From IMG/VR virus record IMGVR_UViG_3300042473_001368: a stretch of 64,000 nucleotides of DNA, one strand, 5' to 3'. Positions 3 to 58,799 of the stretch are shown in pieces (position 1 is the first letter of the stretch; each line of letters starts with the position of its first letter). A program made the position numbers and the translations under genes. Under the pieces are notes generated by a model. The model saw nothing but the letters and a program-made list of their open reading frames with translations. It did no database searches and was not told the DNA's origin. The DNA comes from a virus.

Positions 3-782
3 AATTATTACATTCATTCGTTCAATTTATCTGCAGCTGATACATTTTATGGCTCAGATCCAACATCAGTTTTCTATGGACCTGTTTCATTGATGATGTA
101 CCTCGAGCTAACTGATGGTGCTATTAAGTTATCTAAGTTTGGCTTCACACCGGATGATGAATTCACCGGATATGTTCATATTGAAACATTTGAGAATCAA
201 ATAGCTGATAGAGACTTCTACATCAGAACACAAACAGGAGCACTTTCGAGTTATAACGAGTATCTTACATATGTACAAGCTCAATCATCAACTCCTGGAT
301 TTAATTTTCCTGCTAACATTGATACGACAGCTCCTGAAGTAGGTGGTTATGATTTCAGTACATCAAGATATTCAGCACTACAACTTTATAATAGCACTGG
401 TCAATCAGTAGAGCCAAAATCTGGCGATCTAATCGAAGTGTGGCCTCTTGGCTGTGATAGACCAAATGGTAGAGGCTCTAAGATTTATGAAGTAACAGAG
501 AGAACTGATCAAGATATAGCTACTCTTAACCCTGTTCTTGGTCACTATGTTTACCGTTTAAGAGCTAAGAGATATATGCATTCATTCGAGCCTGGAGCAC
601 CAACAGAGAAACAAAATCAACAAATATTCGACAATGCTTTCTCTGGTATTATATCATCAACTATACCTGGCGTGTCAGCCTCTTCTGCGAAGTCGTACCC
701 AGGCGATATAGATAACACCTCGAGAAACGAGGTGTTTGACATGTCGGTAAATAATACCGATATCTATGGTGAATACTATTAA
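3..782 (+). CDS. gp14: T4 gp14-like neck/head-completion protein (5' partial)
   Basis: Frame is open from base 3 (NYYIHSF..FYGSDP..F). LSKFG..DE and PKSGDLI motifs match the gp14 pattern. Confidence 0.7.
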   Translation, partial: NYYIHSFNLSAADTFYGSDPTSVFYGPVSLMMYLELTDGAIKLSKFGFTPDDEFTGYVHIETFENQIADRDFYIRTQTGALSSYNEYLTYVQAQSSTPGFNFPANIDTTAPEVGGYDFSTSRYSALQLYNSTGQSVEPKSGDLIEVWPLGCDRPNGRGSKIYEVTERTDQDIATLNPVLGHYVYRLRAKRYMHSFEPGAPTEKQNQQIFDNAFSGIISSTIPGVSASSAKSYPGDIDNTSRNEVFDMSVNNTDIYGEYY

Positions 783-1138
783 AGCTTATCTCCTACAATA
801 ATACTGTTGCCTGATAGAGTAAAGTTATGAGTAGGTTGCTTAAGATCAACTTTAACATTATTAGCAGCAGCAACATCTGTAATAAACTCTGATAGTTCTC
901 TGTGCATTGCAAAGATAGCTGGTGCTCTATCTCCAAGCTCGTTTAGGATTTCCTGAGGAGTAAAGCTATCATCCGCCCATACAAGATCAATGCCTCTACG
1001 CTGTACACTAACTAAATCATTAAATGTTTCACATGTCGTATTCACAATTATATTAGCAACAGCTTTGAGTCTCTGTTGTCTCATTTCAGGTGTTACAGTC
1101 GGCGCGGCAGGAATTTTGTTATCAGTTAAGATTGACAT
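779..1138 (-). CDS. hypothetical protein
   Basis: 119-aa ORF abutting neighbours, protein-like composition. Confidence 0.7.
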   Translation of the reverse strand: MSILTDNKIPAAPTVTPEMRQQRLKAVANIIVNTTCETFNDLVSVQRRGIDLVWADDSFTPQEILNELGDRAPAIFAMHRELSEFITDVAAANNVKVDLKQPTHNFTLSGNSIIVGDKL

Positions 1139-1147
1139 ATATGATAT

Positions 1148-2062
1148 TTATGCTTTGTTGTATATATTACTTGAATCGAGAGGGTCTGAGAGAACTGCAT
1201 AGTAAATTGCTTCTTCATCAAACATTTGAGTATATTTGTCGAATGGACACTCAGCAGGAATACCACCGATTTCGAAATCATACAAATATGATTTTCTATG
1301 ACCTTTAGAGTAATCAGCTTTAGGAAGAATATTTGCATGCATATCGTAACCGAATAATGTAGGAGATGTAACATTCCATATTACTTTCGATGGCTTACCA
1401 ATTGCAGCAGCAATATGCTGTAAAGAAGAATCGATAAGAATACGTTCGGTTGATAAGTGTATGATAGCTGCTAAAGTACCTACTGTGCAACGTTCATCTA
1501 ATCTCTCGCAGTTCTCGAGTACAGGGTGATACTGATTACACACATGTAATACATGATAACCTTTCTGTACTAACATATTCACTATTGACTGAGCAATATT
1601 AGGGTGAATATCTCTAGCCCAGTTATACGGTAGCGTATGAACGCTACCTCCGAATGGCTGAAAGACGCAAAGTGGTTTCTGATTACCTAAAAATCGTTTA
1701 CCTGCAATTTCTACCTCTCTAAAATTAAAATTAAGTGATGAACTCTTGTATTGCTTTGTACCAACAAGATTGCACCAGGTTTTAATAAGGTGCAATCTCT
1801 TAAAAATATGATCTTGCTGTCTGTACGGATCCTGAGCGAAGATTTTTGTATCTGTCCTGCCTGAGATATAATCTCTATAGAAATACTCGAGACTGTTGAG
1901 GTCTCTACTCTCACTTACACCTTCATTGCGTTCAAATACTCCAGGATACGCGCTACATACAATAATATCATCGTCTTTATTTTCATGCTTATATGAATTG
2001 ATAACACTAGTAGCAGCTACATGCTTACCTAGTCCTCCTGTTATATGAAAGATTGTTCTCAT
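1148..2062 (-). CDS. glycosyltransferase, GT9/heptosyltransferase-like
   Basis: GGLGK N-terminus, QPFGGS..RD, IDSSLQHIAAA..KPS.VIW..TSP..FGY motifs. Confidence 0.7.
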   Translation of the reverse strand: MRTIFHITGGLGKHVAATSVINSYKHENKDDDIIVCSAYPGVFERNEGVSESRDLNSLEYFYRDYISGRTDTKIFAQDPYRQQDHIFKRLHLIKTWCNLVGTKQYKSSSLNFNFREVEIAGKRFLGNQKPLCVFQPFGGSVHTLPYNWARDIHPNIAQSIVNMLVQKGYHVLHVCNQYHPVLENCERLDERCTVGTLAAIIHLSTERILIDSSLQHIAAAIGKPSKVIWNVTSPTLFGYDMHANILPKADYSKGHRKSYLYDFEIGGIPAECPFDKYTQMFDEEAIYYAVLSDPLDSSNIYNKA

Positions 2063-14312: not shown

Positions 14313-14387
14313 CGGTATGAAGCTTTAATGGTGAAGCGGTTGTCTGAAGAACAACATAAGACGATTCAAGCGCGTCCATGCCGGCCA
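14313..14387 (+). tRNA. tRNA-Phe(GAA), divergent
   Basis: gttgt-CTGAAGA-acaac; imperfect T stem, G73, CCA. Confidence 0.75.
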
Positions 14388-15512: not shown

Positions 15513-15636
15513 GCAATAGTAGCGAATGGTACAGCAGCGTGTCAGTAGTCAAGATCTCATGGCGGAAACAGGCGGAATACGACAGTACGAGAAACTGGAG
15601 CGTGTTTTTATGGAGGTTCAACTCCTCTCTATTGTT
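15513..15636 (+). ncRNA. tRNA-scaffold RNA with an expanded central domain
   Basis: gcaatag/ctattgt acceptor, TAGC D-arm start, ggagg-TTCAACT-cctct T-arm, ~50 extra nt; own GAAC-N5-TATAAT promoter at 15488-15502. Confidence 0.55.
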
Positions 15637-15750
15637 TAATGCAATCGGCCTCGTGAACAGTGGTGATGCTCTCAGCTTGGATTAAGTTCCTGTCTTCGGA
15701 TTGCTGTGGTCGTATACCTGCGCCTAAAGCTGTTCAAACAATTTTAAAAT

Positions 15751-17145: not shown

Positions 17146-17241
17146 CAGTATATAGTGTAGTGATAGCACAACAAATGCGAACTGTGAAAACAGATGTAGC
17201 TAATCAAAATGGTTGCGAGGGTTTGATTCCCTCTGTACTGA
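17146..17241 (+). ncRNA. tRNA-scaffold RNA lacking a normal anticodon arm
   Basis: cagtata/tgtactg acceptor, D arm, gaggg/ccctc T arm; centre holds a ctgt-GAAA-acag hairpin. Confidence 0.55.
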
Positions 17242-30376: not shown

Positions 30377-30850
30377 ATGAAAAGTATTACACTATTCGCG
30401 CCAAATCTCTTAAGCGTTGATGAGATTATGCGGTATAGCAATAAGCGTAAAGTCTTTCTGGCCGGCAGCATCGAAATGGGTGCTGCCGAGCCATGGCAAG
30501 AGGAACTAGCGTCTCGCTTCGCAGATAACGATATTGTCTTTTATAACCCTCGCCGTCCTGATTGGGACAGCACATGGACTGATACAAGCGACGCATTTAA
30601 CGAGCAGGTAAACTGGGAGATGGATCACCTAGAAGAGGCTGATGAGATCATTCTCTATTTTGATCCAGCTACTAAGAGCCCGATTAGTCTATTGGAGCTT
30701 GGCTTGCATGCTGCTAGCAAAAAAGTAACGGTGTGTTGCCCTGATGGCTTTTGGCGCAAAGGTAATGTTCGTGTTGTCTGCGAGCGATACGATATACCTT
30801 TGATCCACAGCAAAGAAGAGCTCATCGATCACTTGCGCCGTGTCTGGTAA
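30377..30850 (+). CDS. nucleoside 2-deoxyribosyltransferase-like protein
   Basis: VFLAGSIEMG...WQ, NPRR, QV.WE..L, SPISLLELG. Confidence 0.8.
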   Translation: MKSITLFAPNLLSVDEIMRYSNKRKVFLAGSIEMGAAEPWQEELASRFADNDIVFYNPRRPDWDSTWTDTSDAFNEQVNWEMDHLEEADEIILYFDPATKSPISLLELGLHAASKKVTVCCPDGFWRKGNVRVVCERYDIPLIHSKEELIDHLRRVW

Positions 30851-32366: not shown

Positions 32367-33098
32367 ATGAAACTTAAAATAAGCGGACAAATAATAGACC
32401 TCGTTCCAGGCACTGAAGTCTCTGAGATTATTGGCGTCACCAAATATGAGCCACCTGCTCCTCAAGATCTTAGCGCTGCTGGCTATTTGCCTCGTGGATT
32501 GCCTAAGACTGATGAAGAGCGCTGGCAGAATATTGTTGACTTGCCCTTTGGTGAAGTGTGTGATATTACTCTCAAGATCGATGGCAGCTCGTTAAGTGTC
32601 TATGCTCGTAAACTCGAAGATGGCTCTTGGGAAACCGGAGTAACTTCTCGTAGCTTGCGCCTCAAGCCTGAATGCGATAACAAATACACTCAAGGAGTTG
32701 CTAAGTATGATATTCTCAACAAGCTCCTCGCTTACTGTCAGCAGCATGATGTAAGTCTCAGCTTGCGCGGTGAGCTGTATGGTAATGGCATTCAGGGCTT
32801 CGGCAAAAATCCTCACGGTCAACTTCCGCTTAATTTCGCTGCTTTCAGTGTCTTTAATATGGATAAGCTTGAGTATGCAGGTCCGAGCGACTCGCATTAC
32901 TACGAGAAGATTTGTGCTGAGCTAAACATTCCTGTTGTGCCAATGCTCGAGAAAGGCGTTGTGTTAACTCCAGAGCACATTCAAAAATATAGCGCAGAGA
33001 TTGATAAGATCGATGGTAAAGCTTTTGAAGGCGTTGTAGTTAAGCATGCAGGTGGCTCGTTTAAGATTATTAACCTGCAATATGATGAAAGAAAATAA
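32367..33098 (+). CDS. RNA ligase (DRB0094/Rnl2-like), catalytic piece
   Basis: GVTKYEPP, PKTDEER.QN, motif I KIDGSS, RGELYG.GIQ, EGVV, FKIIN. Confidence 0.82.
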   Translation: MKLKISGQIIDLVPGTEVSEIIGVTKYEPPAPQDLSAAGYLPRGLPKTDEERWQNIVDLPFGEVCDITLKIDGSSLSVYARKLEDGSWETGVTSRSLRLKPECDNKYTQGVAKYDILNKLLAYCQQHDVSLSLRGELYGNGIQGFGKNPHGQLPLNFAAFSVFNMDKLEYAGPSDSHYYEKICAELNIPVVPMLEKGVVLTPEHIQKYSAEIDKIDGKAFEGVVVKHAGGSFKIINLQYDERK

Positions 33099-37467: not shown

Positions 37468-37497
37468 TCTCATAACGAACTCCGTTATAATTTGTGT

Positions 37498-41444: not shown

Positions 41445-42419
41445 ATGAAAGAGAAAATTACTCATATCACTGACGAACAAAAAGCAAAAATGCCACAGTA
41501 TGTGGATAGGTGGATCAAGACCGGTACTAATACTGATCGACTCGATCCAGTCCGTACCGCGAAGACAATTGAGAACTACCGTAAGCTTATTGGTAAGCCT
41601 GTTGATGTTCCTTTGATTATCCTCGATAACCCTCTTGAAGCGTGGGCGGCTTGCCATCTCCTTAGTAACTTCGGAGTGAGCTTTGAGAACCTTAATGCAG
41701 AGCTTGCAGAGGTTTTCAATGGTAACCCTAAAGGCTATGAGATTCCTCGTGCTCGACTGCCATGGCAATGCGGTTCGTTCTTTGTATCGACCTTCTCCTT
41801 CTATGACTATATGTTTGAAGAGCTGGGCGTTGAGATCGACGCAGAGCTTTACGCGAAGTATAAAGTCTGGGAATCGACTTCTGAGCTTGGCTGTATCTAT
41901 CCTTTGGATGAGTATACTATTGTCTCTCAGAAACCAACTGAGATTCATTTGAACGAAGCTCGTGTGCTGCATCGCGATGGTGGACCTGCTATTTCTTATG
42001 CTGGTATGGGTAACCTTAAGATCTATTGCTTGAATGGTGTTACTGTTCCAGAATATATCGCGGTGACTCCTGAAGAGAAACTCGATCTTGAATACTACAA
42101 GACTATCGAGAACGCTGACGTCAAAGCTGAGTTTGTTCGCAAAGCTGGCATTGAACGCTTCAAAGAACTTGGCAAATTGGTCGATGACTATACCAAGTAT
42201 GCTGGAGCCGAATATGAACTCTGGCAGAAGAGTCAATATGAAATCTGGGATATGAGCGCGATCTTCGATGGTCTCGACTATGCTCCTTATTTGATGATGA
42301 CAAATCTCACTACAGGTATTTATCATTTCGAGGGAGTTAGTCCAGCTTGTCGTACTCTTAAAGATGCAATCAAGGAACGCTTAGGCGGACGTGATCTTAT
42401 CATTAAAGCTATTGCGTAA
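41445..42419 (+). CDS. DUF6745-like protein
   Basis: KP.EIH....LH..GGPA..Y..G...Y..NGV.VP, NA.V.AE....GIER, TG..HFEGV.P.C.T...A. Confidence 0.65.
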   Translation: MKEKITHITDEQKAKMPQYVDRWIKTGTNTDRLDPVRTAKTIENYRKLIGKPVDVPLIILDNPLEAWAACHLLSNFGVSFENLNAELAEVFNGNPKGYEIPRARLPWQCGSFFVSTFSFYDYMFEELGVEIDAELYAKYKVWESTSELGCIYPLDEYTIVSQKPTEIHLNEARVLHRDGGPAISYAGMGNLKIYCLNGVTVPEYIAVTPEEKLDLEYYKTIENADVKAEFVRKAGIERFKELGKLVDDYTKYAGAEYELWQKSQYEIWDMSAIFDGLDYAPYLMMTNLTTGIYHFEGVSPACRTLKDAIKERLGGRDLIIKAIA

Positions 42420-43560
42420 GCTTTAGCTTTGATTCGAGAATAGCTTCGATATTGTCGAAATCATAGTATGGAATTCTAACGAGTTCGATATTATGGTCTC
42501 GACAATATCTGTTTTTGCGTTGGTCGCGTTCTTGCGTTTCTTCGAAGGCTTTTTCTCCACCAAAAAACTTGATAGGTTCGAAGTGTTGCTTACCGTCGAA
42601 TTCTATCATTAAGTTAAGAGAAGGTACAAAGAAATCAAAATAGTATCTATAGCTATCATCCTTAATATATTTTTGAATTTTGTATTCACAGTTTAAAGAG
42701 TTGAGATACTTTGAAATCCTCGTCTCGCCTTGAGAGTTGCAGCACGCGACACAACCACTACCTCTCAAATGCCCACCAGGCTTTTGTTGAAACTCGCCAT
42801 GAACAGGGCAGATAATATTGACGGGTGTAATACTGTTAATGTAATATACGTTTTCGTAATTGTAGAAATTATCATGAATTACGCTCGACCGCGCCACAAA
42901 ACTCTTTTGTAGTTTCTTGTTATTATTTGCTCGTACTCGTTCAATGTTGCACTCTTCGCAACCACCAAACCCTCTCGATAATATAGTAGCCTTTGTCTCA
43001 AAGTACTTGTTGTGCTCAAGACACTTTACCCGTACGGTAGATACACTGTTAGCGTACCCTGATTCGGAAAGATCAAACTTATTATCTCCCCAGACGCTCT
43101 TAATAATATTCTCCCATTCTACTTTCCGCTTCGCGTGATTAGATTCAGAATAATTTTTATTTGGTTTGCATTTTTTGCAACCTCTTCCTAATGTATAGTG
43201 CGCAGAGTATGGCATCTTAAATAACCCATGGTCAGGGCAGATTATATCAACAGGCGTATTAGCATTCTTATACACAACTTTCGAATAATCGTATCTATCG
43301 CCATGCTTGTCTCTAAACTTTCCTAAAACATAATCATGGCTATGAGTTATTGGCGCACTATTTTTAATCTTACCGCATGCCTGACAACCAAACCCTCTTA
43401 AATGAGCGCCTGCTCGTTGTTTAAATTCGCCATGCAAAGAACACACAGCTGTTATTATTGTATCGCTATTAACATAGTTGATGTTAACGTATTCATACAC
43501 GCCTTTATGTACTTTTGTTGCTTTTTCGATAAAGCTCTCGTTTGTATGTCTTACAGGCAT
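42409..43560 (-). mobile_element. homing endonuclease-like ORF: CxxHG zinc-ribbon repeats plus a DUF559/PD-(D/E)XK-like nuclease
   Basis: Repeated YDYSKV.Y....IICP.HG.F.....H..G.GC; C-terminal FDFF.....MIEFDG.QHF..D..K..YC....L.RI.Y. Confidence 0.78.
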
Positions 43561-55442: not shown

Positions 55443-55688
55443 ATGATTAACAGCATCAATCCTGACTCCTACATGTGGCGTAATACTGCATCAGCTCTCA
55501 AGCAGCTCTTAGACAACATCGCTACTGCATATGCCGACGAGGGAATGAACCTCGATGAGTATATCGCATCGCGCAAATCTGATGGTGAACGACAAGCTGT
55601 TCGTATTGTATTCGGCTTAGTAGACGAGCTCGTTGAGGAACTTCAGTGCATGGAAGAAGCGCCTGTAAATTTTCTCGCCAAGCGATAA
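55443..55688 (+). CDS. hypothetical protein, paralogue of 54901-55155
   Basis: Shared motifs. Confidence 0.68.
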   Translation: MINSINPDSYMWRNTASALKQLLDNIATAYADEGMNLDEYIASRKSDGERQAVRIVFGLVDELVEELQCMEEAPVNFLAKR

Positions 55689-55713
55689 TAACGAACCTCG
55701 ATATAATATCATC

Positions 55714-55893
55714 ATGAGCAATCAACAATTCTATTCTTACTGGGCAACTGTAATTGATCAAATGCCTGATGATATCCTCGAGGAGACTGTTCGCATGATC
55801 AACTCGCGGCAACAAATTGGAATACAGGAGATGCTCCGTAATGAACTAGGGTATCGTAACCAGACGGAGATCATAATGGACAACGAAGACTAA
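55714..55893 (+). CDS. hypothetical protein
   Basis: MSNQQFYSYW..., ATG 6 nt after TATAAT. Confidence 0.55.
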   Translation: MSNQQFYSYWATVIDQMPDDILEETVRMINSRQQIGIQEMLRNELGYRNQTEIIMDNED

Positions 55894-55899
55894 CTCAAC

Positions 55900-56001
55900 A
55901 AGTGTGTGGTGTAATGGTAGCACAACCCAAGCAAAGGGCTTCTTGTCCGATAGGATAGGTGGAGTTTCATCGAGGCGCAGGTTCGATTCCTGCCACACTT
56001 A
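55900..56001 (+). ncRNA. tRNA-scaffold RNA with a branched centre
   Basis: aagtgtg/cacactt acceptor, TGGTGTAATGGTAGCAC D arm, gcagg-TTCGATT-cctgc T arm; ~50-nt branched centre. Confidence 0.65.
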
Positions 56002-56033
56002 CTCGGCATTACGAACATCATTACAATAACAAC

Positions 56034-56131
56034 AGCGGGATAACTCAGCCAGGTAGAGTCATCGGAGGAGTAGCAGCATACCAGCAGTGAAAGTTCGGTG
56101 GTCGTTGGTTCAAATCCAACTCCCGCTGCCA
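56034..56131 (+). ncRNA. tRNA-scaffold RNA with an oversized anticodon loop, CCA encoded
   Basis: agcggga/tcccgct, D arm, catcgga/ttcggtg stem with ~27-nt loop, gttgg-TTCAAAT-ccaac, GCCA; own promoter 56013-56027. Confidence 0.68.
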
Positions 56132-56174
56132 TTTTTTGCATAACGAACCTCGATATAATTAACACACACAATAT

Positions 56175-56681
56175 ATGAAAGACTGCATCGCACAACTCGA
56201 CATTCGCCAAGGACAAAATCAACGTACCGTATTCCGTCGCTCTCATAGCGTAACGCCTTCTGCGCGTTACTATGGTTCCTCTAACCTTATCAATGCGACT
56301 GACGAGGTCGGCTCTGAGGCTGGTATCTTCCAAGCACGCTTTAAGTCCAAAGCTTGGTCTAAGTTCACTCAAGCTGCTACGCGCCTTACTGCTAAAACGC
56401 TCCGTGAGAAGCTTGAGCTCTCAAACAATATCTCTATCACCTTCTCTATCTATGCCGGGTGCTCTATGTGTCCTTGCTCTCCTGGGTTCGTTATCCGTCC
56501 TAAGAACGACAATGGCGAAAAGGAACTGCGCGATAAGGAACTTCAAGGAACCACGATCTGGGGCTCCTTGAAGTTCGCGGACCATATCGTAGCGAACTTC
56601 AAGGAGACGAAAGGAACTGAGTTCCTGAACGCGTTCGCGGCCGAAAAGGAACAAAACGAGAAGGAACAAAACGAACAATAA
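56175..56681 (+). CDS. hypothetical protein with a CSMCPCSPGF motif
   Basis: 168 aa after an early promoter. Confidence 0.7.
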   Translation: MKDCIAQLDIRQGQNQRTVFRRSHSVTPSARYYGSSNLINATDEVGSEAGIFQARFKSKAWSKFTQAATRLTAKTLREKLELSNNISITFSIYAGCSMCPCSPGFVIRPKNDNGEKELRDKELQGTTIWGSLKFADHIVANFKETKGTEFLNAFAAEKEQNEKEQNEQ

Positions 56682-57279: not shown

Positions 57280-58176
57280 ATGCAACTTAAAAACATTACT
57301 CAATCCGGTTTCACTAAGGTATCCAATATCAACATTCCTTCGATCTTCTTCAATCGTCTCTCTACTGGCGTCAAAGAGTTCGATTCGCTCTTCGGAGAAG
57401 GAATCCTTCCTGGGTCGTCTATGACTTTTTGCGGCCAAGCTGGCGTAGGTAAGACTACTATGCTTCTTCAAATGATGGAAGCTCTCGCTGGTAACTACGA
57501 GGTAGGTTACGCTTCGGGAGAGGAGAGTTCGTTCCAGCTCGCCTATACTTGCCGCCGCCTTGGTATCAAGAACGTAGCGATTGCGAACGAGACCGATGTT
57601 GATCGTCTTGTTAAGGCTACAAAGACTCTCGATGTACTCGTTGTCGATTCCTTCCAAGCTCTCTCCTCTACGAAGCAAATGAACTCTCGCGAGTTCGAAC
57701 GCTATGCGGTAAACGAACTTGTTGCTGCTGGCAAGGAGAACGAATGCGTGATTGTGTTCGTAATGCACTTGACTAAGACTGGCGACCTTAAAGGCTCTAC
57801 GCTAGTGCCGCATGCGGTTGATGTGAACTTCAAGATCACTCGCGACGATGAGGGCGACGAGACTGCACGTATCATTAGCGTGTACAAGAACCGCTTCGGC
57901 TCTACGGGAGAGTATCACGCCAATATGACTCGTGCGGGTATCGAAATCTCTGAGCGTAAAGAGATCTCTGCGCCTAAGTCTAAGGTCGATCGCCGCAAAG
58001 AACTTCACGAAGCGATCCTTACTATGGACCCTCCTCTGATTACAAAGGGTGCGCTGATACAAAAATTTGGACTTACTTCGAGTCAATGCTACTTGGTTCT
58101 ACGCGAACTCCAAGATATGGGTAAGCTTATCAAGTACGGTAAAGGAGACTCTGCTACCTGGAAGAAGACACTCTAA
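57280..58176 (+). CDS. radA: RadA/Sms-like RecA-family ATPase (ATPase core plus short C-terminal HTH-like tail)
   Basis: TG..EFD..FG.GI.PGS, Walker A G.AGVGKTT, Y.SGEES, VVDSFQ, H.TK.G...G...H.VD, KNRFG. Confidence 0.8.
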   Translation: MQLKNITQSGFTKVSNINIPSIFFNRLSTGVKEFDSLFGEGILPGSSMTFCGQAGVGKTTMLLQMMEALAGNYEVGYASGEESSFQLAYTCRRLGIKNVAIANETDVDRLVKATKTLDVLVVDSFQALSSTKQMNSREFERYAVNELVAAGKENECVIVFVMHLTKTGDLKGSTLVPHAVDVNFKITRDDEGDETARIISVYKNRFGSTGEYHANMTRAGIEISERKEISAPKSKVDRRKELHEAILTMDPPLITKGALIQKFGLTSSQCYLVLRELQDMGKLIKYGKGDSATWKKTL

Positions 58177-58799
58177 GACCTACTCTTATAATGGCATTCA
58201 AGGCTGCAATACTTCTTTACGTTCTTCTTTGAAGATAGCATCTCGCTGCCGCAATAGTCGCAATGCTTAGAGAACATTCTAGATAACGTTAAGCAACTAC
58301 GGCTACAGTGCTTTGTTGTTCTTGTAGATAATACTTTGAACTTACCACCGCAGCCTGAACAACATCTCGTTACAAATGGTAAGAATGTTTGTTTATAGCA
58401 TTCTTTGCTACAGTATGGTCTATCTCTCGCAACTTGTGATTTGTTTGCGTAAAACTCTTTATTACACTGCTTACAAGCTACAATCTTACCGTTCATTCGG
58501 TGAGCGCTTAATTGACGCCGCATCCATCCATATATCTTATTTGACTTTCTTTGCTTAGAGGTAGTTGAAGATAGAAAAAAGACAGCATACATAAGCTTTA
58601 TATTACCTGGGTATATCTTCACAAGTAGTTGATGGCATACATAATGCTCTTCAGGAGTGAGATCGACTAAGTTGTCTTCATCGTCTGTTCCATTCATACA
58701 TCTTGGTATAATGTGATGACGTTCTTTATAGGTACCAGCTTCTAGTTTGCGCTCTTTAGCTCTTGAGATGATACTATCGTATATTCTTTGGTAATTCAT
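58173..58799 (-). mobile_element. free-standing HNH homing endonuclease with C-terminal CxxC repeats
   Basis: MNYQRIY..II.RAK.R, ERHHIIPRC..GTD...NLV.LTPEEHYVCH.LL. Confidence 0.85.

Follow-up and report, generated by a model that had tools for sequence, protein, structure and literature searches.

Phage genes for two tRNA-framed RNAs that lack a usable anticodon arm

Why should a phage encode RNAs that have the acceptor, D and T arms of a tRNA and yet no anticodon arm with which to decode? The question is raised by two neighbouring elements, here called E1 and E2, in a stretch of viral DNA of 64,000 nucleotides (IMG/VR record IMGVR_UViG_3300042473_001368), to which, at its full length, we refer as the window. 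ARAGORN finds 28 tRNA genes in an array at 13.0-20.6 kb of the window and calls neither E1 nor E2, which sit 35 kb from this array in an early-type region of small genes. No close relative of the window was found by blastn among 50,697 deposited phage records. A first-pass annotation had recognised the pair as tRNA scaffolds with rebuilt anticodon domains and had offered two explanations: decoys for anticodon nucleases or tRNA-sensing defence, or miniature intron-containing tRNAs. Here we ask what the structure, the genomic setting and the relatives of the two elements say about their function.

Two tRNA frames with a replaced anticodon arm

E1 scores 45 bits against the Rfam tRNA model (gathering threshold 29) and aligns with it from end to end, with a 48-nt insertion replacing the 17-nt anticodon arm. 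Its acceptor stem of 7 bp (AAGUGUG/CACACUU, positions 1-7/95-101) is followed by U8, by a D arm at 10-24 (stem GUGU/GCAC, loop AAUGGUA) and, after an insert of 53 nt (25-77), by a T arm at 78-94 (GCAGG-UUCGAUU-CCUGC). The discriminator is A, and CCA is not encoded. Folding recovers both hairpins that had been pointed out in the insert. The first, CCC-AAGCAAA-GGG (27-29/37-39), has a stem of just 3 bp and A33 when it is taken as the anticodon arm. The approximately 38 nt behind it include the second, UGUCC-GAUA-GGAUA (45-49/54-58), and this part of the insert is probably Y-shaped, with a stem CUUC/GAGG that would carry the second hairpin together with a third, GGUGG-AGUU-UCAUC. The Y-shaped model lies 3.5-4.8 kcal/mol above the minimum free energy (MFE) structure, which is an extended hairpin, but it fits the sites that vary among relatives better than the extended hairpin does, with a single compensatory event behind it.

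The MFE fold of E2 is the full cloverleaf, at -29.4 kcal/mol. A 7-bp acceptor stem (AGCGGGA/UCCCGCU, 1-7/88-94) is followed by U8, by a D arm at 10-26 (stem ACUC/GAGU, loop AGCCAGGUA) and by a T arm at 71-87 (GUUGG-UUCAAAU-CCAAC); the discriminator G precedes an encoded CCA, as had been noticed before, and six T residues. In the anticodon place stands an arm about 15 bp long with a 6-nt loop. The first-pass annotation had drawn this arm as a 7-bp stem with a loop of about 27 nt containing CAT. The 7-bp lower stem (27-33/61-67) stands, but the supposed loop resolves into an internal loop GGAGUA/GAAAG (6x5), an upper stem of 5 bp (40-44/51-55) and a capping 6-nt loop, AUACCA. Because CAU straddles the border between the upper stem and this loop, it does not occupy an anticodon position. 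The upper stem of the window's E2 contains one A.A mismatch; in two relatives (L042 and L043) this pair is A:U and the stem is perfect. At the internal loop, window 56064-56072 reads CGGAGGAGU, with two overlapping GGAG motifs that are partly unpaired and invariant across the E2 copies. Against the Rfam tRNA model E2 gives a partial match of 17.3 bits (threshold 29), and its relatives give none at E <= 0.01.

Both elements keep U8, A14, G18G19, the 15:48 pair, a UUCRANY T loop and G53:C61. Each has the 7-bp acceptor stem, the D arm with G18G19 and the T arm of a canonical tRNA, and neither has the 5-bp stem with a 7-nt U33 loop that a canonical decoding tRNA carries. The earlier reading of E1 and E2 as tRNA-shaped RNA genes that are unable to decode therefore holds: the three arms are complete within the limits given in Table 1, and no usable anticodon arm is present in either.

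Other identities were considered for the two elements and rejected. Neither is a tmRNA: pair 3:70 is G:C in E1 and C:G in E2 (not G3:U70), both D arms are full, and ARAGORN reports no tmRNA. The YrlA or Y RNA family (RF02553) matches the region with 18 bits against a threshold of 69, and as this match spans the T arm of E1 and the D arm of E2 it is an artefact. As for allo-tRNAs and (8/4) tRNAs, an 8/4 arrangement can be drawn only in E1 relatives, which carry A94, and the anticodon arm is non-functional. Checked by hand, the internal loop of E2 fits neither a K-turn nor a bulge-helix-bulge (BHB) motif. A coding role for the reverse ORF 55890-56372 and for the small + strand ORFs over E1 and E2 was rejected because these overlapping ORFs disappear from relatives in which E1, or both E1 and E2, are missing. 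Antisense regulation of anything in the window was ruled out as well, since the longest antisense match of the two inserts within the window is 10 nt, equal to the shuffled expectation.

Table 1. Features of the E1/E2 region and of a paralogous frame, in window coordinates
Feature	Position	Strand	Remarks
Paralogous frame 17146	17146..17241	+	inside tRNA array; Rfam tRNA 38 bits
Promoter repeat, perfect copy ATAACGAACCTCGATATAAT	55688..55707	+	heads 59-aa ORF; E1 reached by read-through
59-aa ORF	55714..55893	+	no family match; stop codon 6 nt ahead of E1 start
E1, 102-nt tRNA-framed RNA	55900..56001	+	Rfam tRNA score, folds, homologues, frame covariation
Decayed promoter repeat ATTACGAACATCATTACAAT	56008..56027	+	5 mismatches; -10 TACAAT, then spacer AACAAC
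E2, 98-nt tRNA-framed RNA	56034..56131	+	cloverleaf MFE, relatives, alignment, tRNA-Met-like frame
T6 run directly after E2 CCA	56132..56137	+	kept in every E2 copy
Promoter repeat, perfect	56140..56159	+	heads 168-aa gene (56175-56681); right-hand cassette border

E1 and E2 are placed between a 59-aa and a 168-aa ORF (Table 1), in a region that carries a promoter-like 20-mer repeat, ATAACGAAC-N4-ATATAAT. The window has 20 copies of this repeat on the + strand, ahead of small genes, and no conserved -35 element was found upstream of these copies. Exactly 6 nt separate the -10 element from an ATG in six of the 20 (those at 37472, 55688, 59595, 61333, 63632 and 63864), and 8 nt do so in two more. 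The 6-nt gap would place the transcription start at the seventh base, so that the small mRNAs concerned would be leaderless; the 59-aa ORF, whose ATG follows 6 nt past the -10 element of the repeat at 55688, belongs to them. Judged from the sequence, many of the small early-type mRNAs of this phage should thus be leaderless or nearly so. The same phage-specific repeat, which heads the small-gene arrays, suggests that E1 and E2 are themselves expressed early. The T6 run behind E2 is possibly a signal for termination or 3' trimming. Two reverse ORFs lie within + strand gene arrays, one at 42409-43560 (-) with a weak DUF723/PvuRts1I-like N-terminal match and one at 58173-58799 (-) with a weak HNH match; they look like homing-endonuclease-type insertions.

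Relatives, cassettes and constraint

Database searches with the region itself returned little. Near and distant blastn searches against the 50,697 phage records gave only T-arm matches to tRNA-Met genes, a protein-based search for the locus in IMG/VR gave nothing, exact and strict patterns of E1 and E2 had no match in IMG/VR, and a relaxed Rfam scan gave chance-level YrlA and plastid matches only. In ten metagenome contigs with identical neighbouring genes (L001-L010) both elements are present; the region is 100% identical in all of them, and these contigs are therefore uninformative on covariation. Informative loci were found by way of homologues of the 168-aa neighbour, which range from 96% to 51% identity. 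Three of these loci (L011, L042 and L043) have E2 alone, in the order perfect promoter repeat, 6-nt spacer, E2 from its A1, CCA, T6 and the next promoter repeat. Neither element is found at the corresponding site of L012-L016, L019, L020, L033 and L035-L041, where the gap is 21-38 nt, and L034 has another small gene there. E2 on the one hand, and the block of the 59-aa ORF and E1 on the other, thus form two distinct accessory cassettes with promoter repeats at their borders. The promoter that the first-pass annotation had ascribed to E2 is confirmed in that E2 is a separate unit with a perfect repeat at the same spot in relatives, but the copy in the window itself is decayed, with five mismatches.

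Differences among the three variants of E2 are confined to the arm; frame and internal loop are invariant. One G.U pair of the lower stem becomes G:C, and all other changes fall at the apex; in L011 the tip has a 3-nt deletion and three substitutions, and a 5-bp upper stem with a 6-nt loop is still formed. The cloverleaf is the MFE structure in all three variants, with z about -2.6 in the relatives. Since the first base of E2 falls on the seventh-base start position of its promoter repeat, the primary transcript of E2 would already have its mature 5' end. The window's own copy, with its degraded promoter and its upper-stem mismatch, could be decaying.

The D loop of E2 (AGCCAGGUAGAG) was also seen on tRNA frames in three IMG/VR contigs, at L167:291-366 (-), L168:8370-8446 (-) and L169:6969-7034 (+), where unrelated regions of 43-54 nt replace the anticodon arm. 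These are three more anticodon-less tRNA-like RNAs in viral contigs, found with a looser E2-type pattern, and they suggest that RNAs of this kind are widespread. Over genome contigs the D-loop pattern was unspecific, matching mostly archaeal tRNA-like genes with long inserts in the anticodon region (4 of 120 inspected).

Relatives of E1 were found with a pattern on the D arm that E1 shares with the RNA at window 17146; with it, E1 was located in several metagenome contigs as well as one contig of IMG/VR. E1 is 93-96% identical in L022, L023, L025, L027, L030 and L031, and the block of identity comprises exactly the RNA together with 3 nt upstream and 1 nt downstream of it. The proteins that flank E1 in these relatives are either unrelated to those of the window or reach at most 39-55% identity, and outside E1 the loci share no stretch of similar DNA longer than 53 nt. 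In all four contexts E1 starts 5-7 nt past the stop codon of a different small ORF, and in the relatives it is followed by a run of T4 or T8 and then by a sigma-70-like promoter. The high identity of E1 could stem partly from recent horizontal transfer rather than from selection.

Seven sites of E1 vary in total. Two of them form a compensatory change from a G:C to a U:A pair in the hairpin GGUGG-NNUU-UCAUC, two more lie within its 4-nt loop, one lies in the D loop, one turns G.U into U.U in the GAUA hairpin, and one affects the first pair of the T stem. The latter is position 94, which is A instead of C in all E1 copies outside the window (including L025:306-407, L027:3748-3849 and L022:4154-4255); in six of the seven related E1 loci the T stem therefore either opens with a G.A pair or is only 4 bp long beside an acceptor of 8 bp, and details of the frame differ accordingly. 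For both elements the insert structure is based on three variants, and for E1 on a single compensatory pair.

The D arm of E1 recurs with other inserts and with other acceptor and T stems in L024, L026, L028 and at window 17146. In the latter the same AAC follows it, the acceptor and T stems co-vary, and the insert is unrelated. The covariation among homologues that had been asked for is indeed present: among the seven RNAs with this D arm, both partners have changed in 10 of the 16 frame pairs, with 96% of the cells paired, a result reached by none of 500 shuffles, although the search pattern itself fixed the D stem. The first-pass annotation had also placed E1 and E2 in a larger set of tRNA-shaped RNAs of this phage, and two further members, at 15513 and 17146, were found again. 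The former (15513-15640) is a 128-nt tRNA-framed RNA with a large insert, a TATAAT just upstream, an acceptor GCAAUAG/CUAUUGU and a T arm GGAGG-UUCAACU-CCUCU; it is 98% identical in L029, and no sequence relation connects it with E1 or E2. The 34-kb metagenome contig L026 contains, beside ordinary tRNAs, two long tRNA-like RNAs at 1053-1156 (-) and 114-213 (-), of 104 and 100 nt, one of which has the D arm of E1 with an unrelated insert. At 14313-14384 of the window a sequence that ARAGORN leaves uncalled scores 40.6 bits on the Rfam tRNA model; it has CUGAAGA as its loop, encodes CCA and has an unusual T arm; this is probably a real decoder of the tRNA-Phe(GAA) type that the program missed.

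What the replaced arm may be for

We propose, at a probability of about one half, that E1 and E2 are independent accessory genes for non-decoding, tRNA-framed effector RNAs, in which the frame matures and stabilises the molecule and the insert binds a partner. E1 would be transcribed together with the small ORF just upstream and excised like a tRNA, by RNase P and 3' trimming, with CCA added by the host enzyme. E2 would have a promoter to itself and start at its first base; it would keep its 5' triphosphate, have no need of RNase P, end near the T-run and then be trimmed back to the encoded CCA. The tRNA frame would act as a chassis for maturation and stability, and elbow-binding proteins might also hold the RNA by it. 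The working part would be the arm that stands in place of the anticodon arm, and it would bind a host or phage partner in the early takeover phase. For E1 the specificity would reside in the sequence-constrained branched domain, and for E2 in the invariant, purine-rich internal loop on the long arm, the tip of which is tolerant. No RNA-binding or tRNA-enzyme candidate was recognised by Pfam among 20 ORFs of the window (mostly its largest), and no TROVE/Ro60 protein was found among these 20 or in a related contig of 108 kb (G001).

The main alternative, though a doubtful one, is that the frame is itself the effector. The RNAs would then draw away host factors that recognise a tRNA by its acceptor end, its CCA or its elbow, such as defence toxins that cut or modify tRNA 3' ends or tRNA-sensing proteins, and the altered arm would only keep them out of translation and away from anticodon nucleases. 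Frames that are perfectly kept, with stems that co-vary, would be expected of such a decoy, as would the encoded CCA and the initiator-tRNA-like minihelix of acceptor and T arm in E2; the accessory distribution and the early-type array are typical for counter-defence genes, and the phage has at least four such RNAs on different frames. However, a mere spacer should drift, and the insert of E1 is as conserved as the frame across diverged phages while the internal loop of E2 is invariant; moreover, CCA is not encoded in E1. Decoys for the anticodon nucleases themselves, as proposed by the first-pass annotation, are not supported. RloC and PARIS-type enzymes cut a specific anticodon stem-loop. 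PrrC, too, recognises and cuts a specific anticodon stem-loop (PMC3014915), and neither element presents an anticodon loop to cut, given the 3-bp stem with AAGCAAA and A33 in E1 and the arm of about 15 bp with a 6-nt loop in E2. For E2 alone one may think of an initiator-tRNA-shaped ribosome decoy. GGAG is the core of the Shine-Dalgarno site, and the internal loop of E2 shows a Shine-Dalgarno-like GGAGGAG on an initiator-type frame. If produced as soon as infection begins, E2 might block host 30S or 70S ribosomes, either at their anti-Shine-Dalgarno end or in their tRNA sites. Unpaired GGAG is also the target motif at which T4 RegB cleaves (PMC3014915), so E2 might instead soak up a RegB-like GGAG-specific nuclease, or protein S1. 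We hold this proposal to be quite improbable; if it were true, translation would be tilted to the phage's own early, often leaderless mRNAs.

E1 and E2 might also be cis-acting, tRNA-like punctuation that provides RNase P/Z sites, 3' stabilisers or terminators for small early mRNAs, the released RNA itself being without a role. E1 lacks its own promoter and in four contexts lies 5-7 nt past the stop codon of a small ORF, an unrelated one each time, which agrees with this, as do the T-runs after E2 and the E1 relatives. It is nevertheless unlikely, because in relatives E2 has its own promoter, with the predicted start at its first base, and no upstream mRNA to be processed, because any tRNA would do and the constraint on the 53-nt insert of E1 would go unexplained, and because most small genes of the arrays have no such element. 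Decay is a still weaker candidate: the elements would be pseudogenes, for instance of a tRNA-Met and a class II tRNA, with junk in the anticodon region. The frame of E2 is clearly derived from a gene of the tRNA-Met type, in the window the promoter of E2 is weakened and its upper stem mismatched (A.A), and both elements are dispensable in close relatives. However, the bases for tertiary contacts are all intact and the stems co-vary, E1 is 93-96% identical where its flanks are saturated and has a compensatory change in its insert, and in E2 relatives the promoter, the CCA and the T-run are all perfect, which together makes pseudogenes very unlikely. Hardly credible, finally, is the other idea of the first-pass annotation, that the elements are intron-bearing or otherwise processed tRNAs that decode once spliced, perhaps by way of phage RNA repair enzymes. 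CAU does lie near the tip of the E2 arm in all three variants, and the pattern of the E2 D loop with a long gap matches mostly archaeal tRNA-like genes whose inserts are read as introns. But there is no BHB motif, as the loops of E2 are opposed (6x5) and not staggered by a 4-bp helix; a group I core takes approximately 200 nt or more, far beyond the 48 and about 41 nt of the inserts; by inspection, no excision rebuilds a 5-bp stem with a 7-nt U33 loop; and three CAU tRNAs and one Cys-GCA tRNA are present in the phage anyway. We know of no bacterial or phage enzyme that splices such inserts.

Both elements lend themselves to experiment. The near-constant insert of E1 across diverged phages suggests a partner that recognises its sequence and that might be isolated with it. 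In E2, promoter, RNA, CCA and T-run together make up a minimal unit, complete in itself, that can easily be expressed and mutated, and the close relatives with and without each cassette make natural comparisons possible.

Comparison with known tRNA-like RNAs

The nearest counterparts in architecture are RNA1 and RNA2 of phage T5 (NC_005859, misc_RNA T5s03 at 30501-30644 and T5s06 at 32959-33083), annotated there as 'tRNA-like stable RNA with unknown functions'. Like E1 and E2 they are encoded by a phage and, in their predicted folds, combine an acceptor/D/T frame with a large insert, itself folded, at the site of the anticodon arm. They measure 125-144 nt and lie inside the tRNA cluster, whereas E1 and E2 measure about 100 nt and are separated from the tRNA array by 35 kb; E2 further differs from them by its own promoter and its encoded CCA. 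RNAC and RNAD of phage T4 (species 1 and 2 RNAs; NC_000866, 70908-71171) have roles that are likewise unknown (PMC3014915; PMC9697503) and are classed as late RNAs (PMC9697503). Both are small stable RNAs, and RNAC resembles E1 and E2 in its tRNA-like T arm and acceptor end, but the predicted folds of RNAC and RNAD lack the full frame of D arm and elbow, and both lie at the end of the tRNA cluster. Alignment of E1 and E2 with RNAC and RNAD shows the T loop alone in common, and blastn among the 50,697 phage records gave no T5 or T4 match to E1 or E2.

The frame of E2 has its own likeness among phage tRNAs. In phage initiator-type tRNA-Met genes such as those of Acinetobacter phage MD-2021a and Synechococcus phage S-PM2, acceptor bases 2-7 and 66-72 and the T arm are nearly those of E2, and 27 of 29 positions in the 3' half are identical between E2 and the tRNA-Met of phage MD-2021a. 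However, pair 1:72 of E2 is A:U and not a mismatch, its discriminator is G and not A, its D stem has C11:G24, and an extension of about 27 nt takes the place of the CUCAUAA loop. E2 thus misses the determinants for initiation, the P site and MetRS. E1 for its part shares with the allo-tRNAs a long arm at the position of the variable arm, and its relatives can be drawn with the (8/4) arrangement of acceptor and T arm that has been described for some bacterial and phage tRNAs (PMC5389517). Yet allo-tRNAs have working anticodon arms and have been shown to be charged and to decode (Mukai et al., PMC5389517), whereas E1 has only a 3-bp stem with A33. YrlA Y RNAs (RF02553) are also non-coding RNAs with a tRNA-like module, but of a different topology.

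By architecture, and with no sequence homology, we would therefore place E1 and E2 with the 'tRNA-like stable RNAs' of phages T5 and T4; in this comparison they are nothing categorically new. Those RNAs have been known for decades with no function assigned. The constraint on E1 and the simple unit formed by E2 make this old question testable, and a function, if found, would probably account for many phage RNAs of a class that is large but hidden.
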